The translations under genes were made by a program, and so were the position numbers. DNA of 63,989 bases, filler included, from Perkinsus olseni (taxonomy: Eukaryota): assembly GCA_013115125.1 (NCBI GenBank). It is 6 parts of 6 records of this genome, joined end to end, with 100 filler letters (N's around TTAATTAATTAA, not from the genome) between each part and the next. Parts side by side here need not be neighbours in the genome. Positions count along the whole stretch, not along the records: positions 55,788 to 63,989 come from JABANN010000980.1; 5 more parts are not named here. One strand, 5' to 3'. Positions 1,588 through 63,989 of the stretch are shown piece by piece. How positions within the stretch are numbered: position 1 is the stretch's first letter; the number at the start of each line of letters is the position of its first letter. The notes beneath the pieces are model-generated. The model searched no databases and had not been told where the DNA came from. It was given only the letters and a program-made list of their open reading frames with translations.

Positions 1588-3050
1588 GTACTTTCGCACC
1601 AAACGCCACTGGTATCTTTACATCCGTCGTCTGGTGACCATCTACTTCGTACCATTACAGCTAGGTGTAATCACTGGTCTCCTCTGGGCCAACATCGACT
1701 ACGATAACTACGTTTACGTATGGGGAACCGATGACGACGAAAGCGTTGATCTTGGTTTCTCAATAGCCCATCATCCGGTACGAGCGAATGCTCTGCCCCA
1801 TCGCCATCTAATGTCCTCAGGTTACACTGCACTTCATTTTGAATGATATTTTTATGGCTTTCTTTTTCGGCATCGCCATGGTGGAAATCGTCCTCGCCTT
1901 GCTTCCAGGAGGAGCCCTCTCTCCAGTGGCCAAGGCGATAGTGCCGCTCCTATGTAGCTTCACAGCATCAACAGCAGCGATCGCGTTTAACGAGACACCC
2001 TTGCCAGGTACCCTAGGAGGAATCCTGGGCCCAATCGGTGTCTTCTTCTCCCTCATGTACATTCAGAAAGCAGCTGGTGCCTTCGATGACAGCCAGTTCG
2101 AGTTTTCGGAGCTCCTAGAAGGCTGGGGTGTCGTCGTGGCCACGGACATCTCCATCGCCTGGTTGATCGCCACCATCGTCTTCGGCAGCGCCCACACAGC
2201 GATACGCTTCCTGCTAGTTTTGGCAGTGGCAGACGACGTCGGCGGCATGCTCATCATTGCCTTCTTCTACCCCTCGGAGCACGAGAGCAATCAGTGGTAT
2301 CTTTTTATGTGCGTGGGAGCCTGCCTGGTCGCCCTGCTTCTGCGTATCTTCAAATTCCGTCATTGGCTATGGTACATCGCCCTGGCCGGCCCCCTCGCCT
2401 GGTACGGCCTGTTGGCCTCGGGCGTCCACGCTTCCCTTGCCCTCTGCCTGGTGGTTCCCTTCATGCCCAAGTACATCCTCATCGATCAGCCACCACAAGA
2501 TGCTTCGGAGCCGACGACAGCCACTTTGCCGGACCCCAACCCCGTCACCGTCGAGGCGCCACAGCGGCAGCAGCAGACTGTTGTTGACGGCAAGCGTGTT
2601 ATTGAAGGCCCTCTGGAGCACTTCGATCATGACTGTTCTTTCTTCGTCCATTGCGGGCTTTTCTTCTTCGCCTTGGCCAACGCTGGTGTCCAATTCACGG
2701 AAGATGCCTTCGGATGGATCACGTTTAATGTAGTCGTCTCTCTCATCTTCGGCAAATGCATAGGCATTTTCACCTTTGGTTCGATCGCTCTTTTGATACC
2801 CAATTTGTCTCTCCCGCACGGGATGGGTCACCTCCACCTTTTCATTGTTGGTGTGGTATCCGGGGTAGGCCTCACAGTTGCCCTGGTCGTAGCCCACGCT
2901 GCCTACTCTCAACGAGAGCTCCTGGATCAAGCCAAGCTGGGAGCCTTGCTGTCGCTACTCGCCGGCCCCATCGCCATAGCCCTTGGTATCGTACTGAAGA
3001 TCGACAAAGTATCAGCTCCGCCACCTAGCGGGCCGCCCGCTTCCGTGTAA
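1588..3050 (+). CDS. nhaA: NhaA-family Na+/H+ antiporter (spliced; first exon uncertain)
   Basis: Motifs LNDIFMAFFFGIAMVEI, GWGVVVATDISIAW, FLLVLAVADDVGGMLIIAFFY, SGVHA, FFFALANAGV and GVGLTVAL parallel the NhaA signatures. Intron ~1778-1820 joins the 1634 and 1839 ORFs; a probable in-frame intron lies at ~1954-2007. Confidence 0.9.
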
Positions 3051-41370: not shown

Positions 41371-41702
41371 GCTGCTGTTGTTGTTGGAGCTGCTGTTTTG
41401 TGACCATTAATACTGTATGATGGCTGCTTGACAAGTACTACTACTACGACGTGCTGTCATCAGTGGCATTGCTGACGACAACAATGATGTTGATGTTGGA
41501 AGCGCTACTGAGTAGTCGGCCGCTGAGGCTACGGGACTTTGTATTCGCGAGTTGTGTTGGGTTACACGCATATTGGGGTGGTGACACTGGGGCAGGGAAT
41601 GGATAGTGACTGAGGGCGCTATTTCCTGAGCTAAATTTCGACAGGCCCTCGACGTGAACAGACAGCATGGTGAGGTGTCGTTGAGCGGTAATCCTCGTAG
41701 GC

Positions 41703-43016
41703 ATGAGTGTGCCTTTATACTCCTCTGTCCCTATGAAGGAGATGCCCGTCATCAAAGTATCATCAACCGACTCGAGAAGCTCCATCGATCTGCCCAGTTC
41801 GGCTGCCCCGGAGAGGATGGGCGTACGGTCGTACATAGCATTGGGTGTTCTCCTCATGCTTGGTATCTCCGCCTGGGTTGGTGTTAATGCCGTCTATGCG
41901 CAGCTCTTCGCCATCGTACCACACCAACCGGAGTCCTTTAGTCTGGCTTCCTATCTGACTGTAGTCGCCCAATGCGCCAATATAGTCATACCTATCTACA
42001 CCTTCATTCCTCGGAAACCTTCCTTGTGGGTAACTGTTCTGGTAGTTCTCTTCCTGAGTGCGGTCGCTATGTTTTTGATGTCAGGGCTGTGGGCAAAAAC
42101 CGCGGTCGTTTTCGGAGCGCCTAGATCGGTTGGCCTTATGTCTACCTGTTTTCTCCTTTCCTTGAGTGACATTCTGTCCAACTTGGTATTCTTCTCCTAC
42201 GCCGCTGCCTACGGCCCGAGCTCGTCGTACTTGGCCTCACTAGCCACAGGAGAAGTCCTTTCGAGTGCCGCTGCCTCGCTCGTAGTACTCATCCAGAAAG
42301 GCATCGGATTTGGTCCTGCTACCTACTTTGCCGTAATAGGTGCATACAGCACGCTCTGCGCCATCGCCTTCATTTCACTGCACTTCTATATAATTTACGT
42401 GTCGGGCGGTTGCTACCGGTCATCGAGGATCGTTCGTTTTTCAGCTCGGGGAATAGACCATTCATCGGTCTTTTCTCGTTGATGGCTTGGCTGTCACTTA
42501 TACAAAATTCTGTAACTTTGGTATTTTTACCGTTTGCCGCCCGGGCCTATCCAGGCTCCTACGGCTTAGCAACAAATTTGCTCTTCGTCTGTCGCCCAGT
42601 GGCGTCTCTAACAGCTGCAGCATTACTCGGGTCGAGGCATAGTGAGAGTCGTGCGATGAGAATCCTGGACGTTATAGCATTCACGGCCTGGAATTTCGGC
42701 GGGTAAGTGACCAATGAGATCAAAGCACTCTTACAGCGAGTTCGCCTTTTTCAGGCTATTCATGATCACTCTGTCGTACATCCCACCTCATCAGCTTCCC
42801 CTCTCTGGAGAAGCAGTCGGCACTGTGGCCTTCACGGCCATCGTAGTGTTCAGCGGGTCCACTATTTCCTTTAGTAAAGTGGCTACTCTACTTCGCCTAG
42901 GGCGCCATAACTCTCAGGGAGTCCTAAAGAATACAGGTATATGCATCCAGGCAGGCTCCTTGGTTGGGGCTCTGCTTTGCTTCCTAGTTGTCCACCTCTG
43001 CGAGCCACCGACGTGA
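41703..43016 (+). CDS. SLC52-like riboflavin transporter, copy 1, spliced
   Basis: GISAWVGVNAVYAQL..PESFSLASYLTVVAQCANI; multiple TM segments; C-terminal GICIQAGSLVGA. Confidence 0.8.
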
Positions 43017-43621
43017 GTGAACAGACCACCGTTTTCAAACCAAGGTCTGAATGTTACGACATCTCAGTAAGAAACTGTCGCACCAGAAGACAGCTGTGGG
43101 CACGGCTTTCCATCAGTAGTCGCAGAAACCAGACCTTTCAGCGCAGTAGTTTTTTTTTTGCTGAGGCAGTCTTTCTGACCATTATGACTGTCCTCAACGG
43201 ACTATCGGATATTGCGGGCTTTGTCCTTGATGATCACTACAGTAGCATTGTGCAGTGGCAAAGTCTCATATCCCCTCATGACGTGTTGGGTCTACAAATA
43301 TCCGCTGAGAGGATACTCAGAGCCTCCGGGGAGGTGGTAATAGGGAAGGGGGGTTACTTCAGGATGGATGATAATTGATGAGCCTCTTGGCACCCGGCTA
43401 CCCATTCCCAGTCCACGCCAGGGATCGCAACGCATTAAAGCCGTTACGGCTTTCCGGCGTCCAACTGGGAATAGGTTCCACCGGCTAGCGTGTCGAGTGA
43501 TGCTTACTCGCTGCTCCCCCTTCACAGTCTCCATCAGGGCCTGTGTTGATCCCCACCGTCAGTGCGGCTCCTTCAGGCTTGTTTGTATATGGACCCTGCC
43601 ATACTGATTTGAACCCCAGCC

Positions 43622-44552
43622 ATGCCCGTATCACCGTCCTCAAACTCGCTGGGAGTCGACTCACCAGCCGAGGACCAGCATCCTACCTTAACCAGTCATC
43701 GGCCTTCGGGATCTGAGGATGTTTCTGATCCTACGGCCAAAAGAACTTTCACGCTCAGGCTTCCTACAGCAGGCAAGGCTTCTCCATTGGCTTTGGTCCT
43801 CTTCGCCATGCTTGGAGTATCAGCATGGATTGAAACCAACGCCTTGTTCTCCGAGCTGTGGGCCGTGGCTCCTGTTCTGCCTGAGTCGTGGAATCTAGCA
43901 TCATATTTGGTAGTAATAATCCAGTTGGGTAACATAGCCCCTCTGGTCTACTCCTACCTCCCCAAGCCACCATTATGGATAGCTATGCTTATTGTACTTC
44001 TATCCAGTGGATTCTCTATGTTTTTGGCCTGCGGCATTTGGGATATCACAGCCAACGTCTTCGGTGCTGAGCATTCTGTTGGTCTCCTAGTTGCGGCATT
44101 TGTAGCGTCGATGAGTGACTGCCTGTCTAACCTGGTGTTTTGGCCCTATGCCGGTGCCTTCAGCTCCCATCCAGGTTACGTCGCCGCCCTAGCCACCGGT
44201 GAGAGCCTCTCAAGTGCGGCCAGTGCGGCCGTTGTCGCCATACAAAGTGCATGTGGCTTCAACCCTACCGTCTATTTTGCTATTATTGGTAGCATCGTCA
44301 TGTTCTGTACCGCTGGCTTCTTCATGCTCCACTTTGGGTACAGCGGTAAGGCCATGCATGACTTCGTGCGCGAGGACCAGACTCCCGATACCCCTGCGTC
44401 GTCATCCTCAGCATCACAGAGAGAGCACAGCCTCTTCTCTCGAGAGAGCAAGCGGTTCCTCGGTTTCTACCTTCTTATCGGCTGGCTCTCCTTCGTACAG
44501 AATGCGTTAACTCCCACATTCCTCCCCTTCGCTGGCAGGGCATACCCGTCCG
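43622..44552 (+). CDS. SLC52-like riboflavin transporter, copy 2 (truncated by contig edge)
   Basis: GVSAWIETNALFSEL..LPESWNLASYLVVIIQLGNIAPL, DCLSNLVFWPY, ATGESLS; colinear with copy 1. Confidence 0.82.
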
Positions 44553-44652
44553 NNNNNNNNNNNNNNNNNNNNNNNNNNNNNNNNNNNNNNNNNNNNTTAA
44601 TTAATTAANNNNNNNNNNNNNNNNNNNNNNNNNNNNNNNNNNNNNNNNNNNN
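44553..44652. other. Assembly linker
   Basis: N run with TTAATTAATTAA. Confidence 0.98.
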
Positions 44653-52064: not shown

Positions 52065-53393
52065 TTACTCCCAGCTCTCAGGCATGAAAGCGAACTGCAT
52101 AATACCCTGAGGGGTGTTGGGGTAGTCAGCCTTCACTCTGCTTGCGAAATTTACAAAGGGGACACCGTCCCATACGCCGAACTCGTAATGCGCCTTCGAA
52201 TCACCACACTGACCATTGAGAGGCTGCATACAGTTAGGCGACGTATTGAATGATGTAGACCACATCATAGAGATCTTCCCTTCCTGAGAGTACTGAACGT
52301 AGGAGGTCTCCGTGTACTTGATGGCTGTGACATCGCTTTTGCCACTGAATAGGTAGTTGTACATAGCAAGAGCATCATTCACATAAGTGACGAAGGGTGT
52401 GGTCACCGGAGAGCTTGCTATCGGCATGCCAGCATCATCATAGAAGTCGAACATTTGAAGATAAAGATGATCGACGGTCTCAAGGAAGATTGAGCCGCGA
52501 TTGTCAGGACGAGTAACCTCATCAAAGCCACAAGTCAGGGCAGTAGTTAATCCATTAGGTGCCGCCATTCGGATCTCTGAGTTGTCGTGGTTGAGTAATC
52601 TGTTATACGAGGGTGTACCAGCAAACTCTTCAGTGTCATAAACAACCCCAGTAAACACGTCACCGTTCCTGGCAGCATACTCTATAACACCATCGAGGAA
52701 GGACCCCATAGGTGAGGCAGCCAACCATTGGTCTCGTTTACCATGGGCGGTCTCCAGATCGGGATAGCAGATAACACTCAACTTGCCAGCAATACGATTG
52801 AGTAGATGAGAGTATAGCGGGGAGCTCCTCGTACCAGTTAGAGCATCATCAGGAGTGGTCACTCGGACAACTACTTGAGAATAGCGCATGCCGATGTGAT
52901 TGCCCATCACATGATTGTAGACCTCGTCGTAATAGACACCAAGCTGATGCACATCGTAGATCTCGGGGAATTCGACCCACATGAAGGAGTTTTCCACAGT
53001 AGCTGGCGGAGGTGGAGGGGTCGTCTTAAGAGCAACAGAAGTGGTCTCTGGAACTGCGGTGTCAGTTTCGGTGACAACCCGAGTAGTTGCGGGAGCACCG
53101 GAGCTTGTCTTGGGGGCAACAGGATTCGTAGAGCTGACCACATCATGACCCCCAAGATAGTTTTGTAGCTGTTGCTGGGCCGGTATGGCGCAACTACAAG
53201 AGATCGAACCACCATGGCACACATGAGAGTTGCCCATACAGTAAGATGCCGCACCCTGTACCCGAGCGTCTTGACAGAATTCATCACCCGTCGTAAGACA
53301 GCTCGAGCTCAGTCCACGCAACATAGTAGCTTGGACCGAGAACACTGTAGATAAAGAAGCGGCGACGAATAGCACGACGGATGAGCAATGCAT
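52065..53393 (-). CDS. Secreted protein: Cys-rich module, Thr/Pro linker, GH18-like domain (copy 1)
   Basis: Signal peptide; six-Cys segment; mucin-like linker; FTGVVYDTEE, VDHLYLQMFDFY and GIMQFAF resemble GH18 beta4, beta6 and beta8 motifs. Confidence 0.7.
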   Translation of the reverse strand: MHCSSVVLFVAASLSTVFSVQATMLRGLSSSCLTTGDEFCQDARVQGAASYCMGNSHVCHGGSISCSCAIPAQQQLQNYLGGHDVVSSTNPVAPKTSSGAPATTRVVTETDTAVPETTSVALKTTPPPPPATVENSFMWVEFPEIYDVHQLGVYYDEVYNHVMGNHIGMRYSQVVVRVTTPDDALTGTRSSPLYSHLLNRIAGKLSVICYPDLETAHGKRDQWLAASPMGSFLDGVIEYAARNGDVFTGVVYDTEEFAGTPSYNRLLNHDNSEIRMAAPNGLTTALTCGFDEVTRPDNRGSIFLETVDHLYLQMFDFYDDAGMPIASSPVTTPFVTYVNDALAMYNYLFSGKSDVTAIKYTETSYVQYSQEGKISMMWSTSFNTSPNCMQPLNGQCGDSKAHYEFGVWDGVPFVNFASRVKADYPNTPQGIMQFAFMPESWE

Positions 53394-54781
53394 TCGTAAA
53401 ATGGAACTGCGCAAACTGACAAAACAATGAGTACCGAAGATACAACCCAGGATATTAGGCGAGATAAATCCAGAAGCAGCGGACAGAATGCCGTGGAAGA
53501 ACGGTGGATGGCTAGCGCTAGTGAAGGCCCGTGGGAGAGCATTAGATGGGGTGCTTCTTCCATGGCGCTAGGCTAGTACGACGGCTAGAGAACAATGTGA
53601 TGGGTACTGAACCAGGCGGTGGGTCCGAATAGTCTTCAGAAGTACTCTAGGGATGTGGATAAAGTCCAGTGAATGTGGTTGATGCTACTCCGTAGTAACA
53701 TCTATCGTACTCACAAGCAACCTCAAGTTAGTTGCTGGGACACTCGCATGATTGTTCTGTGTGAGATCTACCCTCATACGGCCCTCGCTAGTAGCACACA
53801 ATAAGTTCCAGCTCCGCACTGTGACGCGTCATGCCTACTCTCTAGCGCCTCTCAGTAAGTAGAGCAAAGCGCTTCCCGAACTATCCCTGAGGATTCGTTC
53901 GACACATTCCTTCCTGACTATAAACAAAACATCAGAATGACTGTTAACATCAGTAAGGTCAAACACCCCAATCGAGTACAAAGCTGAACTGATATTATGG
54001 AATAGGCTGTACACATAGATGATGAGCAATAGTCAACACAACCGAGGAACAAATCCGTCTCCAATCGAGAACGAAGGCTGCGTGAATCGATGTCAACGAT
54101 CCGGGGAGACACTGATATCAGACGGTTCGATACGAACAACAGCGACATCAGTGACTCGGGGAAAATAGAAACGTCAAAATGGGACGCCTATGCAAGAAGA
54201 CTTCTCGGAGAGGCTCCGGCGACGGGCAACACGGTGCCACACCATTGAAACCTCGGCTACATGGTAGCCCGGGCCAGTCGTTGAAGCTCCTTGAAAATAG
54301 CTAGTAAGCCACTTGAAGCGAACAAGAGACGATGAGTAGAACTACAAATACTGAACAGAGATAACTGCCCAAGTAATAGGTAGAGCACATGAAAGCCGGC
54401 TGAAAATGTGCGACATCAACCATGAGTTGCAGAGCTCACCACGCGGATGCTGACACCGCAGACGCACCTAATCAATTACTTGAACGCCCTAGGGCAAGTA
54501 CGAGGAGATATGACGGCGAGTCGTCACGAAGTGGTGGCTACAGATGAATACCGAAAACTTTAACGAAGTGGAAAAGTATTTACCGACCGGGGAAGTCAAT
54601 ACGGTTTGGAGGAACAGTATGCACTTCAATAATGAAAGAAGGTTATCACAATGAGGCATTGCAACATCGTGATGTTAACCAAGATCGGGAGTTCGCTGAG
54701 GTTGGAAGCTCAACATATCACTGATCAGGATGAAGTGAAGAAGCAACGACGACATGGACGACAAAGGGCTCTGGATGTGCC

Positions 54782-55687
54782 TTACTCCCAGGAACGAGGC
54801 ATGAAAGCGAATTGCATGATGCCCTGAGGAGCCTTTGGGTAATGATCAACCACGTTAGAAAGGAAGGACACGAACGGCAAACCCTCCCAAACACCGAACT
54901 CATAGTGAGCCAGAGTGTCACCACACTGACCATTAAGAGGCTGCATACAGTTAGGCGACGTATTGAATGATGTAGACCACATCATAGAGATCTTCCCTTC
55001 CTGAGAGTACTGAGCGTAGGAGGTCTCCGTTTCTTTGACGGCTGTGACATCGCTTTTACCGCTGAATAGGTAGTTGTACATAGCAAGGGCATCATTCACA
55101 TATAAGTGACGAAGGGTGTGGTCACCGGAGAGCTCGCTATCGGCACGCCAGCATCATCATAGAAGTTGAACATTTGAAGGTAAAGATGATCGACGGTCTC
55201 AAGGAAGTGCGGGCCCCGATTGTCGGGACGAGTCAGCTCGTCGAAGCCACAAGTCAGGGCAGTAGTTAACCCGTGAGGCGCCGCCATTCTGATCTCTGAG
55301 TTGTCGCGGTGGAGCAGTTTGTCATAGGAAGATGTGCCAACAAACTCTTCGGTGTCATAAACGACACCAGTGAAGGCCACGCCATTTCTGGCAGCATACT
55401 GTATGGCACCATCTAAGAAGGACCCCATAGGAGAGGCAGCCACCCATTTGTCCCGCTTCCCGTGACCAGTACCGAGATCGGGATAGCAGATAACACCCAA
55501 CTTGCCAGCAATACGATTGAGTAGATGAGTGTATAGCGGGGAGCTCCTCGTACCAGTTAGAGCATCATCAGGAGTGGTCACTCGTACAACTACTTGAGAA
55601 TAGCGCATGCCGACGTGATTGCCCATCACATGATTGTAGACCTCGTCGTAATAGACACCAAGCTGATGCACATCGTAGATCTCGGGG
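54782..55687 (-). pseudogene. Paralog of 52065-53393, frameshifted (or sequencing error); 5' end truncated by contig edge
   Basis: Highly similar to copy 1 but has 2 extra nt at ~55100 (CATTCACATATAAG vs CATTCACATAAG), splitting ORFs 55096-55671 and 54782-55099. Confidence 0.75.
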
Positions 55688-55787
55688 NNNNNNNNNNNNN
55701 NNNNNNNNNNNNNNNNNNNNNNNNNNNNNNNTTAATTAATTAANNNNNNNNNNNNNNNNNNNNNNNNNNNNNNNNNNNNNNNNNNNN
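55688..55787. other. Assembly linker
   Basis: N run with TTAATTAATTAA. Confidence 0.98.
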
Positions 55788-58700
55788 GGTCGTCTCATTG
55801 GAAGAAACCATTGAGATTGCAAAATTCTATGATGAGGATGAACAACAAGATCTACTCCAAGCGAAGGGTAGTAAAGGAGCCTCTGAAGCACCTAAATCAT
55901 CCGAAAGATCATCATCAAGACCGGTATGCAAATTCTACATACGTGGGCATTGTACGAAGGGGGTGAACTGTACCTTTGCTCACCCTAAAAGAACATCGGA
56001 GCGACTTCCTACTCAACAACAGGGCACGACTTCTACTGGACCACCTAATTTTGAGAACCCTTCCTTCAAGCCCAAAGGTATCTGTCATGAATTCAAGAGC
56101 ACGGGCAAGTGCTCCAGGGATAATTGCCTCTTTGCTCACATAAAGCCCGAAGCGACAACGGGCCCAACCCCAACGACTGCTACTGTCACTATTGATGAAC
56201 GCCGCAATGATGAGAAATGCATGGCCATCGTGGGTACAGCGAGGTCAACAATCACGATAAGCCAAGCCCTAACTGCAAATGTTGGCATATGCGGAAGTTC
56301 TGGTGGCTGTACTCGTCAAATATGCTGTCTATTGGATACTGGCAGTAATGTGAACTTGTGTAGTTCAGCTCTTATACAACGTCTAAATTGTGAAGACGAT
56401 GTTATCAACGACAATAATGGTCTAACTAGTGTCCGCTTGGCGGATGGTCGGAATTCCCTACAACAGGCAGGTTCTGTGAATCTTCTATGTGAAACACCAT
56501 GCGCACAAGCCCGTATTACATTCGTCGTGGTGCCGACTTTGGCCTACGAAGTTGTCCTGGGAACCGGGGCATTAAGCTCTCTGGGGATCCACATCCACTT
56601 CAGCAAGGGCACTGATCAACCTAAGGTCACCAGTGGTCATTCGGTGGTGGTTCAGAACGCCAACAATGACGACGGTGTTGCCGCTCCCAACAAGGAGGAA
56701 ACTACAAATGAAGAAGAGTGGCAAGATGATATGAATGATGGGTTAATATCATGCGGTGCCACCTTCGAGCCTATCGTCCTGAAGGACATAAAAGATGATG
56801 ACAAGAAACTTGATGATGACAGTCAACATCAAGACAGCAACATCTTCTCCGACCCCCTAACAATTGATGATGAACCATCAAAACAAAACATTGGCAGGAC
56901 ATCGCCAGTGCTACAAGATCTCCCGTGGTGTGGTGAAAGTAGACCCAAAAAGAACTGGTTCGAAGCTTTGGGGCGAGCAAGGAGCTTGGAACGCTCCCTA
57001 TCCCCACCAGAGCACATATCAGCACAAAATGCCTTTCAAACACCACTTGAAGAAGGTCACATTGAGTTGTGTGAAGAAGATGACATCAATTACTACTTGC
57101 CCATTCATGTTGTCTATAAACCGGGAAGCATAAGCTCGGCTACGAGATTAACAGTGGATGGGCGACGACTCAATAAGCTCTTACGAGTAGGGTCATTGGA
57201 TAATTGTTTATCACTGAACCATAACCTAACCATATGGCGATTATCACCCGGATATGTATCCTTGGATCTATCCAAGGCATTCCATTCGATCAAATTATCT
57301 ACGGTGGTATCATCCTATTGTGGTGGATATCTTTATGGACACCACTTTAGATGGAGGTCTCTGCCCTTTGGGCTATGCTGTTCATCATCTTGTTTACACC
57401 AATCTCTATTACCCATCATCAATAAAATTCCCACTGATTCGTCAGTGGTATGGTATGTTGACGATGTAGGTGTCACGGCCAGAACCGTCGATGCCCTGCG
57501 ACTAAATGAAGGAAAAGTATCAACTACTCTGACACACAAGGGTTTCACTCTTCAACCGAAGAAACGGGTATCTTCAGTTGACTCGGTTGGTCACTTTACT
57601 CACTTCGGTTATCATTGGCATGTAGATCCTTATTCTTCTCCGGTATCTGATGATATATGTGCACAACTTCCTCAACATGTACAAACCCTATACGATGATC
57701 CTCAGTTAATCTTGAGTAAACGACAACTACTGGCTGCTTATGCCACGTGGTATGATTGTATGGGCATCTTCCCAAGTATCGGCGTCAGAGGCAGACTCAA
57801 TATGCAAGCTGCCAATCAAGATACTCCTAATTGGGATGATGAAGTTGACCCTAAACACATTGACAATTTCCGTCTGTGGTGTCAAGCAATAGTTGATAGT
57901 AAGCCTCGAGTGGCTCGCTCACTCTGTGGCGAACATATCTTTATGTTTAGCGATGCTAGCGAAGTAGCGTGGTCTTGCGTCGCTTACTCCCCTACATATG
58001 ATATTCATCGTTCATGCATCCGAAATGATAAACCCCTGCAGCCGTTGAGGGGCTCGGGTGGTGTGTTCAGTTCGACTCATTCATCATGGACTATTCCTAA
58101 AAAGGAGTTATACGGTCTCTACAGAGCATGTGAGCTCTTGAGAGAAATATATGATGCTACAAAATCATTAAATATCCCTCGTCGTGAGTGGCTTTTATTC
58201 AGCGATAGTGCTATCACTATCTATCGCGTGAAATCGAACCGTAATGATGTTAAGCTCTCGAGCCTTGAAGCTCGTTGGGTTACTTATATCCGTGATACTT
58301 GTAATAAGTTGAATGTCCATTTGCTACATGTTTCAAGTAGCAATAATCTAGCTGACGCGCCTTCCAGAGGAATTATTGTACCCTCTGAGAATTTTGCGCA
58401 TTTCAAACTCTCCTTTGTTCGGTCATTACTTGATGGTTCTACCCTGGTCGAGCATTGTCCAAGCCCTGACTTGAAGAACGAACACAGCAATGATATGTTA
58501 TGCTCTGCCATCGATGAGGACCGTGCCGAACAGGAGAATGAAGATGTTGAGGTTGAAGAAGTTGAAGTACCACTGATGGATATGATGGATATTGAAGAGG
58601 TCCGTGAACATCAACAACGATCTCCACTGTACAAAGATATCCGTCAATGGTTACAACAAGGTGGGCACTGGAGTACTTCATGTAGTTTACCGAGAAGCCT

Positions 58701-60210
58701 ACTAGAGAGAGAAGGCCCACCATATTCCTTACAAAATGATATTCTCTATCGCATCACCTCAGTAGATGCTAATGGTGTATCCCAACCTAAGATAGCTCTG
58801 GACCACGCGGACAAGGATTTTATACATAGAGTGATTGACGTGAACCACCACCACATGGGACACCTTGGTGCTGAGAAATTTATACCTTTGTTAGAAGAAC
58901 GTTATTATTGTTCGAGATTCAAGTCTATAATAAGGTCTCGTCTGAAGACTTGCGACCCCTGTCAAAGGATACATGCTGTTCGACATCATAAAAAGTTTTG
59001 GTCCCGTCTTCGTCTGAAAGGACTCCGTCCAGCACAAATCATAGCCGTTGATGTTGTGGCTATGTCTCCTCATGGTGTTGATCCGGCAGATCCGCGGACT
59101 CGTCGCTACACTTCTATTCTCACTGCGACTTGCGCAGTGAGTAAGTTTACTTGGTTGCGGTGTATGCACTCCTATACGGTTAACGAGATTATTAAAAATC
59201 TCGATATTTTACTTGGCGACATCGGTTATCCTATAATATTAGTCTTCGATGGTGCAGCTACACAAACTCCGTGGACAACCACAAGCCAATATCAGAAGCT
59301 TAAAGCGTGGGGTGCAAAAAAGGCAATACAAATTGCCATATTACCACCCTACGCTAGGGGTTATGCTGGCTGGTACGAGGCGTGTCATAGGTTTGTACGT
59401 AAAGCTCTGCAGGCAGATTTTTTAACTGGCAGTGAGCCTGAGGCTTGGCCCGAGCGTATCGCTCATTTCCAACTTATCATGAATAGTACCCCTTATGATT
59501 CGCAGAGTAGCCTATGCCCGTTATACCTTTTTTATGCCTATGCTGGCAGAATACCCTGTGATGTACCATCAGATCCAACAGAAGACCTATCCAATTTGGT
59601 CTCTGGTGTACAACATTTATTGAACCCCGTTGAGCAGGAGTTCTTAACTAAGTTACATGCTGAGTCTGTTGCTATCACTAAAACTCAGTTCTCTGACTAC
59701 CAACTATATTGGAAGAAGCAGAAGGAGATACAACAAGCAGCACTTCAACGGAAATATGGTGCGGCCCAGACCCCTTCCTTCAAGGAAGGCGATCTCGTTC
59801 TAGTTTTTACTCCGTCTAAGGAGCGAGCATGTCCGGACTTTTCTGGTCCCTTTCGTATCGTCGAATGTATCAGTCCGAGCACATGCAAAATTTTGCCTGT
59901 AGGAGGTCACAGCGGTGAGGATCATATCGTACAGTTGCCACTCGTAGAAACTCTGCTCGTGTACCACAAATCCGTACAGTTTCACCTCATACAGTTTCCA
60001 GTCGTACAGTTTTGCTTCGTACAGTGTCATTTCGTCTTGCTGCACTCAGTACAGTGTCATTCCGTACACTGTCGAATCTTACAGTGTCCACTAGTACAGT
60101 GTCATATCGTACAGTGTCCGCTCGTGCAGTTTCACTTAGTACAGTGTCAAATAGTACAGTTTCACCTCGTACAGTGCCAAATCGTACAGTTCCACTCCAT
60201 ACAGCGTTAA
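55788..60210 (+). mobile_element. LTR-class retrotransposon A: uninterrupted gag-pol ORF (CCCH x2, PR, RT, RNase H, IN), BEL/Pao-like motifs; 5' truncated
   Basis: LLDTGS; YYLPIHVVYK..RLTVD; LDLSKAFHSI; LPFGLCCSS; YVDD; NWDD; FSDAS; TIPKKEL; NLADAPSRG; HHHMGH..CDPC; IAVDV/FDG/GWYE. Confidence 0.93.
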
Positions 60211-60254
60211 CTCGTACACCCTACTCTCGTACACCCACGATTTCGTACAACCCC
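59925..60254 (+). repeat. Degenerate 15-bp tandem array, core CGTACAGT
   Basis: About 20 units (e.g. TCGTACAGTGTCATT, TAGTACAGTGTCATA), translating as VQxxx pentapeptides at the end of the pol ORF. Confidence 0.9.
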
Positions 60255-60316
60255 GGCGGGGTTACCCCGCCAATTTTTTAGTATATTTTGCGCCGCGGCG
60301 CAAAATACATCCGAAA

Positions 60317-60690
60317 TTCGGATGTATTTTGATTGAAATACTTTTCGAGCCATCTTCTAGTTGAAGTCCGAGCACGGGAAGGTAGTCAAAGACTTCTTTC
60401 CTCACATACAGGGAATCATCATCATCCTCGAAGAGTATCCTCATTGCAGCTATTTGCCCATCATCGTACCCGTCGCGCTTCATCCCCCTTCTGATCGCCC
60501 TCACGATATCATCATGTAAATGCGGATAAGACATGCTAATGGTACTGGTTCCAGTATCGATGGTTGTCATGAACGACCTTGGATACGTGTATAGGAATCT
60601 TTCCTTCGTGAGAAGATTCTCATTTGTGTCGAACAGCTTAACAGACGGCACCCAAGTCTTAGTGTAAGCTCGATGGTAGTGTGGACCGCG
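60317..60690 (-). pseudogene. Fragment of a host pepsin-like aspartic protease (C-lobe)
   Basis: TTIDTGTSTISM catalytic motif, followed by YLPVLGLQL..SISIKIHP; no N-lobe or start. Confidence 0.6.
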
Positions 60691-60789: not shown

Positions 60790-63700
60790 ATCTAGTCGAC
60801 TGTGAAGCTTCGAAGATAGTACAGCACTGGTCCTCGAGGACTTGAGTGTCCAACACCCCGCCCCCCTTGCGAGGAATCAACACCTCTCCAAGGCACCGAC
60901 CACCGGCGTGCTCAACAGGCCTATCCAGTAGACTGCTAAGGGAGTCGGCGTGGGTGTTAGAGGCACCGGGGATAAAGTCAAGGGAGAGAGAGCTGTGCTC
61001 GCGGATCACCTCCAACTCGGAACCGATAGCATCCACCAGGCGCACCAGGGCTCTTCTCTCGAGAACCTTAGAAGACTGCAGTTTCAGAGAGCCAGACTGT
61101 ATCCATGCTAAGCTGGGACGGTTGTCACAGCGGAAGCACACCTCCAAGGGCACCACCCCTCGTCGCTTCTTGCAGGCTGACTTGGCGCAGAACTCAACGA
61201 TCTCAGCAACCTTACGGAGAGCTAAGAGGCAGAGACGTAACTCACGGCGGTTGCTCGAGTGAAGAGTCTGGCTTCGACTGAATCTTACTGCATCTTCATA
61301 GATAAGCTGGCCGTCCGAGTAGATCGCGAAACCCCCACCGAACAGGGAAGCATCACTACAGACCTCCAACTTGATGGGCTGGGGCTCATTGGTACGGACC
61401 ATGACAGCATGCGAACAAGGTACGGACTCCGCCTCGCAGATCTCTCGACCCCAACGAACAAGCTCGAGGTAGGCGAGTTTGTAGTCGTCGCTCATACTTG
61501 CTAGGTCGCACACGCAGTCCCAGTCCACCGCCGCAAAGCAACCGCCCACCAGTGACCTCAACGTATCAGCTAGTAGTCGAGCGCGGGCATGTAACTTGGA
61601 TAGGACGCCCTACGCGTGAACTGTAGTCTACAGTCTGTAGACGAAGTCGGTATTAAAGATAGAGACAGCAGAGCCATTGCTGACGTCCATACCACACTCC
61701 GCGAACACCGCCTGCATCTCCTCGACAGACCTCGGTACCGTGGCTACCGCCAACTTCTTTTCCTGAGATAAGAAGCCACCAAGGAATAGGAAACGGAGCA
61801 GCTGGCAGAGGTTGTGAGCGACAGCGACAGGCAACCCGGCGATGACCAGGTCATCGAAATAGTCGTGGAGCCAGGTATCCGTGGCCACGTCGCTGCATCG
61901 ATAGCCAGAGACGCCTACTCCCAAGGTTCCACGCAGCGCCAACGGACCGGCAGATACACCGAAGCTAACCCTCGCGGTGATGTAGTTGCCGACGGCGGTC
62001 TTAATGGAGATGGCAGGTGTACCCGACTCGGGCGATAACCTGATGGAGTAAAAGGCCGACTTAATGTCAGCTGTAGCAAGGGCCATAGGGGCCGTCATCC
62101 TGACCGAGCACAACACATCAGCCAGACCCGGACCACCATGGACGGCCGCAAGAGGCAAGGCCGAGTTTATCGGCCGGAGGTCGCAGACGAGACGACTCTT
62201 GGAAGGTGGCTGGGACGACGACTTGTTGGTCACCAAGAACACATTGGCCGCTGGCACCGAAGGCGACTGACCTCCGTTACTGGGAGGTGCTTCGGCCCAG
62301 AACCCCTTGTTGACAAAGTCGCCTACGAGTTCAGCGTAGGACTGCTGAAGTGCACTGCTCAAACGGCGGTACATCGCGAGGGCGTAGTCTCCAACGGCTA
62401 CTCTCGGCACTGAGAGAGCAGGGAGGTACAATTCGGCGACGTAAGCCTGACCGGGAACGTCCAAACGCTCAGACGGAAGCAGACGACGGATCCGAGTGCG
62501 ATACGAGCCACCCGAGGAAGAGTCCAACCATCCCTTAGCGGCGATAGCGTTCCAGATCTCAAACAGGCTGGTCTCGGTCCGCGGTGGGAGTCGAATGACC
62601 ACCGGCTTGGTGGGGACCGAAGAAGGAGGAAGGAGAGTGAACTGCGAGGAGTCAACTCTTGCGGTCGTCGCCTCACCACCGTAGAACAGCTGGTTGTCCA
62701 GTGGTTCGTCAGAGATGACCTGGATAGTCTCGCCGGCTTGGGCATCGGGAAGGAGGTCAGAGCCATAGACTAACCGACCGTCAATCCAAGCCCCGGAGAC
62801 TCCATGGCAGACAATTCGCCAATGGTCGATAAGGTCTCGCCCGATCAAGCAGTACGGCTTATGGGTGGCATCGCTGCTGGATGTCGCCCGACGGGATTGG
62901 CAGAGAGGCAGGAACCGGAAGACGTGATCGGTGTCGCCTAACCACTCTCGTTGGTTGATGTCCAAGGCGGAGACGGACAGACGAATAGTGCTGTTGACAT
63001 CGATACAGCGGCCGTCCGCCAGTTGGACTCTCGTAGGATTACCTGCACACGACACGGAGAAGGGCAATCGAGCCAACGGGTCTGGGCTGACTAGGTACGA
63101 TGCACTGGCTCCAGTGTCGACAATTCCATGAACTTGAAGGGTCTCCTCGGACTGGCGGAGACGAAGCTGAAGAGTGACCTCCGACAGATGGCGCTGTTGC
63201 TGAGCACCGTGGAGTTCACTTCTCAGGCGGATAGAGTCAATCGAGTTATGGCTGACCCAAGCGCTACTGCCATCCTGGGACAGGCCACACGAAGACGGCG
63301 GCTTGAAACCAGTTGACAGCGCATCGATCTCAGCGGAAGCTGCGTCGTAGCATGCCGCAGGCTGACCACCGAGAGGAACAGACGGAGAGCTCGTAGGTGG
63401 GGAAGTTGATAGTGTAGGCTCACTCCGGCCATTGTGCGAGCTGCCTACTGGCTCACACGACCGTGGGAGTTTTTTGAATTGGGTTTGTAGTCACAGTCGA
63501 ACTGCTTCACCCTGGTATAGAGCTTCCTGTCTGTGAACCCTTCCGTCGCCGCCGCCTCACCGGAAGTTCTGGAATCGAAAGCCAGTAAAGCATACTTCTG
63601 GCCTCGCCGTGACACCAAGAACTTGACCTCACTGGCCGCCCCTAAACCGGGAGAGTTAGCAGGCGCGCTCTCGAGCTTACCGACACCAGGTCCGGTCACG

Positions 63701-63989
63701 AACAGGACGTAAGGTTGACTGCGGGCCCACGTCATCACCTCGCGGTACTCCTTCTTGTGCTTGCTAGTGGACCCCGCATCACCAGTGAAGAGCACCCTGT
63801 CACGAATATCCTTGGAAGGCTGCTCACGGTCCTGAGGTCGGCTCGCCTTTCTGGAGTCGGAAACAGCTGTGAAGGACTGGCAGATATCACTGAGGATGGA
63901 CAGGACTGTCACATCTTCGGCTTTACCATCAAATGGTAAACGCAGTTGCCATTCCTTCGACGCCGTACCGGGCCGGAGAATCCTCGCCG
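60790..63989 (-). mobile_element. LTR-class retrotransposon B, decayed: gag-like ORF, -1 frame pol (PR, RT, RNase H), integrase missing
   Basis: IVDTGAS (~63100-63125), RLVCDLRPIN, ADIKSAFYSI, VSFGVSAGP, YFDDLV, VCSDAS, SNRREL, CDN, NTHADSLS; two in-frame stops near 61610-61630. Confidence 0.88.
63414..63475 (-). promoter_or_regulatory. Predicted -1 programmed ribosomal frameshift signal
   Basis: In-phase A AAA AAC (63475-63469) just before the gag TAG (63447-63445); stem 1 GUGUGAGC/GCUCGCAC; stem 2 GUAGGC/GCCUAC; the -1 frame is open through PR and RT. Confidence 0.8.

Follow-up and report, generated by a model that had tools for sequence, protein, structure and literature searches.

How can pol be expressed in a retroelement in which it lies in the -1 frame relative to gag? 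The question is raised by a minus-strand element at the end of a 63,989-nt stretch of DNA from the protist Perkinsus olseni (hereafter the window, that is, the whole stretch analyzed here), where the window end cuts into gag. The first-pass annotation of this stretch proposed a retrovirus-style -1 frameshift cassette at the gag-pol junction, with the slippery heptamer A AAA AAC followed by an H-type pseudoknot. We find that the slippery site together with a stable downstream hairpin is well supported as a non-random feature, and that, on balance, it is probably a real -1 frameshift signal of a very divergent family of long terminal repeat (LTR) retrotransposons of P. olseni; the pseudoknot may form in addition.

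The gag-frame codons on the minus strand are UCA AAA AAC, so that the heptamer (63475-63469) is in the X XXY YYZ phase of the upstream open reading frame (ORF), as proposed. Other canonical features of -1 programmed ribosomal frameshifting are present as well. The -1 frame is open from 63490, before the heptamer, and runs through the protease and reverse transcriptase (RT) motifs to 61628; the gag TAG is the eighth codon past the heptamer; and a stable structure, here a bulged 13-bp hairpin, begins after a 5-nt spacer, at the near end of the range of about 5-9 nt. The annotation also held that the -1 frame lacks an early ATG, and indeed its first Met is codon 373 of 620, past the protease motif, so that pol is not expressible on its own. 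In another P. olseni assembly, the full-length gag product (P0112) has 494 aa and terminates at the same point, with 98% identity; its C-terminal 180 aa correspond to window positions 63448-63987.

All pairings proposed for stem 1, stem 2 and the unpaired A between them are found in the sequence, with the gag TAG (63447-63445) in the loop. Stem 1 consists of 8 bp including one wobble (U63455.G63437), and the putative stem 2 of 6 Watson-Crick bp, with CA as L1, a lone A63442 between the stems and a crossing loop of 14 nt. When H-type candidates were enumerated, the best was exactly this combination (stacking -16.1 and -12.3 kcal/mol). The extended form of stem 1 is present too, except that the minimum-energy hairpin gains one further pair, which makes the spacer 5 nt and not the 6 nt that had been claimed. 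This extended 13-bp hairpin competes with the possible H-type pseudoknot for part of the loop.

Of 5922 random 45-mers from the window, 48 fold as stably as the 45-nt hairpin (-18.8 kcal/mol; top ~1%), as do 103 of 7750 GC-matched ones, and in downstream stability the site ranks second among 142 window heptamers in any phase. Of 126,088 positions, 619 have a match to stem 1 alone and 81 an H-type candidate of equal or better quality 4-10 nt downstream; these 81 positions cluster in a few loci, the junction among them. Canonical heptamers number 145 per 127,978 positions on both strands of the window (AAAAAAC accounts for 9), and at this density the 13 in-phase positions of the gag-pol overlap would be expected to hold about 0.015 such heptamers. 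The junction cassette thus moderately exceeds chance. A search against Rfam gave no minus-strand match and two plus-strand rows at chance level.

Table 1 Features of the minus-strand element and its gag-pol junction
Feature	Position	Strand	Remarks
gag ORF, 3' part	63445..63987	-	180 codons, cut by window end; TAG stop 63447-63445
TGA closing the -1 (pol) frame	63491..63493	-	15 nt upstream of heptamer
Slippery heptamer A AAA AAC	63469..63475	-	gag phase; no difference listed here among variant contigs
Spacer UCCCA, to base of extended hairpin	63464..63468	-	5 nt; 10 nt if 8-bp stem 1 alone forms
13-bp hairpin	63426..63463	-	lowest-energy fold without pseudoknots
Lower helix of hairpin	63463-63459 / 63430-63426	-	part of 13-bp hairpin; AAU bulge 63433-63431
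Upper helix of hairpin (stem 1)	63458-63451 / 63441-63434	-	9-nt loop 63450-63442 holds gag TAG
GCCUAC, possible 3' arm of stem 2	63414..63419	-	pairs with loop GUAGGC 63448-63443 (H-type)
pol ORF, -1 frame	61628..63490	-	620 codons; ends at in-frame TAG 61630-61628
Protease motif VDTGAS	63121-63104	-	in pol ORF
RT motif YFDD	61861-61850	-	in pol ORF
Two in-frame TAGs	61610..61630	-	61630-61628 and 61612-61610; deletion scar, RT-RNase H connection
pol continued, same frame, RNase H region	60794..61609	-	full-length homology ends at 60794
RNase H-region motif CSDASL	61360-61343	-	
RNase H-region motif HADSLS	60952-60935	-	

Other copies of the element were compared using contigs of four public runs aligned to 63000-63989 (80% likeness) and the gene models of four P. 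olseni assemblies. One run (X1) is identical to the window over the compared stretch and may be its source, and another (X10), which covers 63631-63887 only, is identical there; X2 yields eight pieces, with two haplotypes in places, and X8 a single contig with 54 differences. In the variant contigs of X2 and X8, up to 54 of 990 positions differ with 0 gaps and no indel listed, and the length of the A-run does not vary in any aligned contig. None of the four gene models (0/4) reads through the A-run in one frame either; gag and pol in a single frame, the finding that the annotation had named as contrary to its proposal, is thus absent from these copies.

The listed differences comprise 40 of the 59 differing places, 17 of the 54 in X8 not being among them. 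For the X2 contig that spans the junction, 8 of 10 differences are listed, the other two are placed by inference in its last 30 nt, and its first 30 nt are common to a contig identical with the window. Three listed differences fall within 63414-63490. Two of these, A63484G and C63490U (minus strand), lie just upstream of the heptamer and are synonymous in gag; the third, U63455C, is silent in the pol frame and replaces Val with Ala in the gag tail; in stem 1 it converts the U.G pair to C-G, and the variant folds at -20.7 compared with -18.8 kcal/mol. The 12 listed differences upstream of the heptamer include 9 that are synonymous in the gag frame (expected share 0.30, p=0.002) and 4 that are so in the pol frame; for the 28 downstream, the corresponding numbers are 11 in pol and 4 in gag. 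This pattern fits a switch of frame at the heptamer, and gag is still under purifying selection.

Along the element, divergence is very uneven. The pol-frame residues past the site (SSHNGRSEPTLSTSPPTSS), 19 before the linker, are identical in the window, P0004 and P0113, and the linker beyond them varies. This linker, which leads from the frameshift site to the protease (63213-63384, minus strand), is hypervariable, whereas its flanks differ by about 1-5%; in one X2 contig, there are 26 differences in 232 nt, 24 of them listed inside 63213-63384. The low variation of the cassette, with 1 difference in 62 nt compared with 26 in 232 nt in the next contig, was considered as evidence and set aside as weak because of this unevenness along the element. 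Scans of metagenome and viral contigs yielded no relatives of the element; a metagenome locus found with a single-protein query (L001) is a 15-residue chance match.

The public gene models bear the marks of the frame change. P0112 is a complete 494-aa gag with the same stop that carries the Val-to-Ala change and uses no intron. The model of this very locus (P0002) and P0113 join ...KQFDC to SSHNG... via a 50-nt 'intron' at 63494-63445, and P0114 jumps to pol from a different point. Altogether, P0002 drops three short 'introns' on the minus strand, namely, 63642-63680 in open gag, 63445-63494 at the frameshift site and 61610-61630 with the two TAGs; models from other assemblies contain 'introns' of the same kind or different ones. 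Because the models patch the frame change and the deletion scar with invented introns, the P. olseni 'hypothetical proteins' annotated here are gag/pol chimeras.

The window copy is defective and dead: its pol frame holds two TAGs, it carries the scar of an internal deletion, and it lacks the integrase. The word 'functional' in the first-pass annotation was therefore too strong, and the cassette seen here is a well-preserved relic of the design of the family. At the TAG scar, P0003, P0113 and P0114 have sense sequence, and other copies are longer there than the aberrant stretch of the window. The homology to full-length copies ends at 60794, so that the window copy lacks about 640 residues, the integrase among them; P0113 and P0114 run on through the integrase, both with gaps or frame-shifted stretches. 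The window contains no LTR-like repeat, the 5' end of the element lying beyond the window and its 3' end being truncated at 60794. All three in-frame stops are TAG, which raised the possibility of TAG reassignment or readthrough. It was set aside, without a systematic test, because at the junction pol does not share the frame of gag and because, at the place of the two pol TAGs, other copies have a longer and different sense sequence.

The family to which this copy belongs is barely recognizable by domain profiles. The pol ORF is 100% identical to a P. olseni 'hypothetical protein, partial' and 88% identical to a second copy, and its Pfam matches are weak (Asp_protease_2, E=0.023; RVT_1, E=0.12). 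An exhaustive search found 109 pol homologues, 62 at E<=1e-10, many of them 1300-1600 aa long; among the 46 relatives scanned, some match RVT_1, Integrase_H2C2, rve, RT_RNaseH or Asp_protease_2. P0007, which stands for a sister family, is 41% identical in pol. A profile built from 12 family members matches Ty3 Gag-Pol (7q5b, E=4.6e-21), the integrase of the foamy virus PFV (E=2e-18) and the RT of human immunodeficiency virus, and P0113 aligns with P0017 from protease through integrase (E=2e-111). The order protease, RT, RNase H, integrase on one polyprotein follows from the motifs in the window, which occur in this order, and from the full-length P0113. The element therefore represents a deep, very divergent and unclassified LTR-retrotransposon lineage with this domain order. 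It had been called BEL-like; we find no support for this label, given that the Pao family profile PF05380 (Peptidase_A17) has no match in the pol pieces of the element, in P0113, in P0114 or in any of the 46 relatives scanned.

The upstream ORF is labeled gag by virtue of its position and of a language-model lead: its nearest clusters are PNMA, Retrotrans_gag and DUF1759 (0.79-0.87), to be taken as a lead only, and full-length P0112 has no Pfam match. Its nearest language-model neighbors are domesticated Gag proteins of the PNMA type. The AlphaFold model of P0112 is of low confidence (mean predicted local distance difference test score, pLDDT, 46), with an N-terminal helical hairpin at residues 1-90 (pLDDT about 80) and a C-terminal beta-alpha-beta-beta-alpha-beta domain at about 405-478 (pLDDT 64-73) that ends at the slippery site. 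No zinc knuckle is seen in the model, and a fold search with P0112 returned look-alikes of the helical hairpin (residues 9-96) only.

If the cassette works as its anatomy suggests, ribosomes translating gag would pause with Lys-tRNA on AAA and Asn-tRNA on AAC, held up by the stable hairpin that begins 5 nt downstream of the heptamer and that its loop may lock into a pseudoknot. Some of the ribosomes would then slip one base back to AAA AAA and go on in the pol frame, giving Gag-Pol, and the remaining ones would terminate at the TAG in the hairpin loop, giving Gag. That slippage occurs, and how often, we infer from the sequence.

Several observations weigh against this explanation. Among shuffles of the GC-rich 69-nt segment itself, 17 of 200 fold as well (z = -1.37), and given stem 1, stem 2 is not beyond chance, 353 of 5000 shuffles of the 40 nt downstream yielding one as good; from these two results, the hairpin stands as supported and the H-type pseudoknot, the pairings of which are present in the sequence, is not established. 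The single listed substitution within the structure, U63455C, is one-sided, without compensation, and since 19 of the 59 differences are not listed, a substitution in the X8 cassette could be among them. The excess of synonymous changes in pol (11/28, with 0.32 expected) is not significant (p=0.25). All copies come from one species and are close (~88-98% protein identity), so that they could share an ancestral lesion, and no pol copy seen is free of defects or predicted gaps. Furthermore, removal of the 50-nt GT...AG segment 63494-63445 would also join the frames, and the size of this segment matches the median intron of P. marinus: in that species, the annotated introns are 49 bp long at the median, and 99.3% of them are GT-AG (Table 1 of PMC7789003; here and below, papers are cited from the portions available).

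The shared-lesion explanation takes the ancestor to have had a fused gag-pol in which one A of the run was lost or gained, with all copies seen descending from, or being allelic to, a dead copy, and the heptamer and hairpin being coincidental. An A6 run is indeed a hot spot for indels, the copies are all close kin from a single species, the window copy and P0114 carry further lesions while P0113 is without some segments, and the compared stretch of pol lacks significant purifying selection; moreover, fused gag-pol is found in the relatives with long N-termini and in another element of the window, element A. Such an accident, however, leaves unexplained why the run is in the correct phase (1 in 3) why a hairpin in the top ~1% starts 5 nt downstream, and why the stops that close the two frames lie only 6 and 8 codons off on either side (chance ~0.08, estimated from 3/64 stops per codon). 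The purifying selection in gag (9/12 synonymous, p=0.002) and the absence of indel polymorphism at the run in the aligned contigs also speak against it. Given the close kinship of all copies and the damaged look of every pol copy, we rate a common lesion as unlikely, not as negligible.

Splicing, which the first-pass annotation had not considered, would connect the frames if the 50-nt GT-AG segment were a real intron, removed in part of the transcripts so that the gag tail and its stop are lost and gag is fused to pol, with unspliced RNA encoding Gag. Gene models P0002 and P0113 assume just this, and splicing is a known means of Gag:Pol control in the retroelements copia and BARE1 (PMC5580714). 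Yet the frame would be restored by any of 19 different GT...AG segments (30-150 nt) at this site, which makes the existence of one unremarkable, and the GC content of this one (0.48) is closer to the exon level than to the 43% of P. marinus introns (PMC7789003). The models disagree in the manner expected if the predictor patches a frame change, with P0114 using another 'intron' and P0112 none, and the same predictor drew 'introns' over the TAG scar and within open gag. With the in-phase heptamer and the hairpin also left without an explanation, we find splicing quite unlikely. Alternatively, slippage of the transcribing polymerase or of RT on A6 might add or remove one A in some of the RNAs and so bring gag and pol into frame, and the homopolymer does sit exactly at the frame change. 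Six A residues make a short run for efficient polymerase slippage, the run length is uniform in the aligned contigs, and the correct codon phase would not be needed, all of which makes this explanation extremely improbable. Slippage of RT ahead of template structure is nevertheless documented for retroelements (PMC5737552).

A combination is conceivable as well. The 50-nt GT-AG segment spans the slippery site, stem 1 and the gag stop, and the junction could serve two purposes: Gag-Pol would arise from unspliced RNA through frameshifting, or else through splicing, with the hairpin perhaps controlling both. We hold such a dual role to be very unlikely; if true, it would amount to a Gag-Pol fusion made by splicing in a protist retroelement, within an unclassified LTR lineage invisible to Pfam.

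Ribosomal frameshifting, the explanation that we prefer, has close parallels. On eukaryotic ribosomes, A_AAA_AAC is among the shiftiest heptamers (PMC5009743), and the activity of the gag-pro pseudoknot of mouse mammary tumor virus (MMTV) depends on an unpaired A at the junction of the stems and on a second A that ends the crossing loop on its 3' side (PMC5009743). The Perkinsus site resembles MMTV gag-pro in having the same heptamer, a 3' structure a few nt downstream and a 0-frame stop soon after. Both key A residues are present in the sequence, A63442 at the stem junction and A63420 at the 3' end of the crossing loop, stem 2 itself being unproven. The dimensions differ: the MMTV stem 1 is short, whereas that of Perkinsus has 8 bp, or 13 bp with a bulge, with a crossing loop of 14 nt and a spacer of 10 nt (minimal pseudoknot) or 5 nt (hairpin). 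Furthermore, the host is a protist retrotransposon and not a vertebrate retrovirus, and there is no sequence homology.

A gag-pol overlap that places pol in the -1 frame is standard among LTR retrotransposons, alongside fused ORFs (PMC5443660). Unlike other elements that use the -1 arrangement, the Perkinsus family is essentially invisible to Pfam. The gag-pol -1 frameshifting of LTR retrotransposons was reportedly surveyed by Gao et al. in 2003. The likeness to copia and BARE1 is that a short GT-AG segment, the removal of which changes the frame, overlaps the Perkinsus junction; Ogre elements provide a further case of splicing-based Gag/Pol control. In copia and BARE1, splicing yields the Gag-only RNA (PMC5580714), whereas in Perkinsus it would have to yield Gag-Pol.

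In our literature search, no description of LTR-retrotransposon recoding in Perkinsus was found; in the publications available, Perkinsozoa are known so far for odd mitochondrial frameshifts. If functional, the signal would add nuclear retroelements of Perkinsozoa to the range of retrovirus-type -1 frameshifting, in a family that goes unrecognized as a transposon in the public P. olseni gene models. The strategy is ordinary and the host, a shellfish parasite, unusual; as the strategy itself is textbook knowledge, what is gained is breadth, not a new principle.

A second retroelement, element A (55744-60210, plus strand), contains a single gag-pol ORF of 1488 codons, in agreement with the first-pass annotation, with a CCCH zinc finger and matches to RVT_1, PF05380 (E=9e-16) and Integrase_H2C2. 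For this element, the label BEL-like is supported. BEL/Pao elements have been surveyed in metazoan genomes (in the available part of PMC3118150), and a PF05380 element in a parasite of mollusks raises the question of a wider distribution or of transfer from the host. The G+C content of element A (0.44-0.47) is lower than that of its neighbors. The 3' end of its ORF is marked by a repeat array (59941-60240) in which a 15-nt unit (consensus near TCGTACAGTGTCA) occurs at least 13 times; the array probably extends the ORF artificially and adjoins the truncated end of the minus-strand element. Between the two elements, there is G+C-rich palindromic DNA (60250-60335) with an inverted repeat at 60284-60331, and the strongest fold after any heptamer of the window follows TTTTTTA at 60274 (-22.6 kcal/mol).

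Elsewhere in the window, direct repeats of about 600 nt with 80-90% identity (52065-52679 and 54782-55398, 2717 nt apart) overlap a minus-strand ORF of 500 codons (52065-53567) that has no Pfam match. Two tandem genes for riboflavin transporters of the SLC52 type lie on the plus strand (41685-42482, 42711-43016 and 43613-44608); in each, the N-terminal part of the profile is covered by one long ORF, and the first has a C-terminal exon further on. An ORF for an NhaA-type Na+/H+ antiporter is located at 1812-3050.

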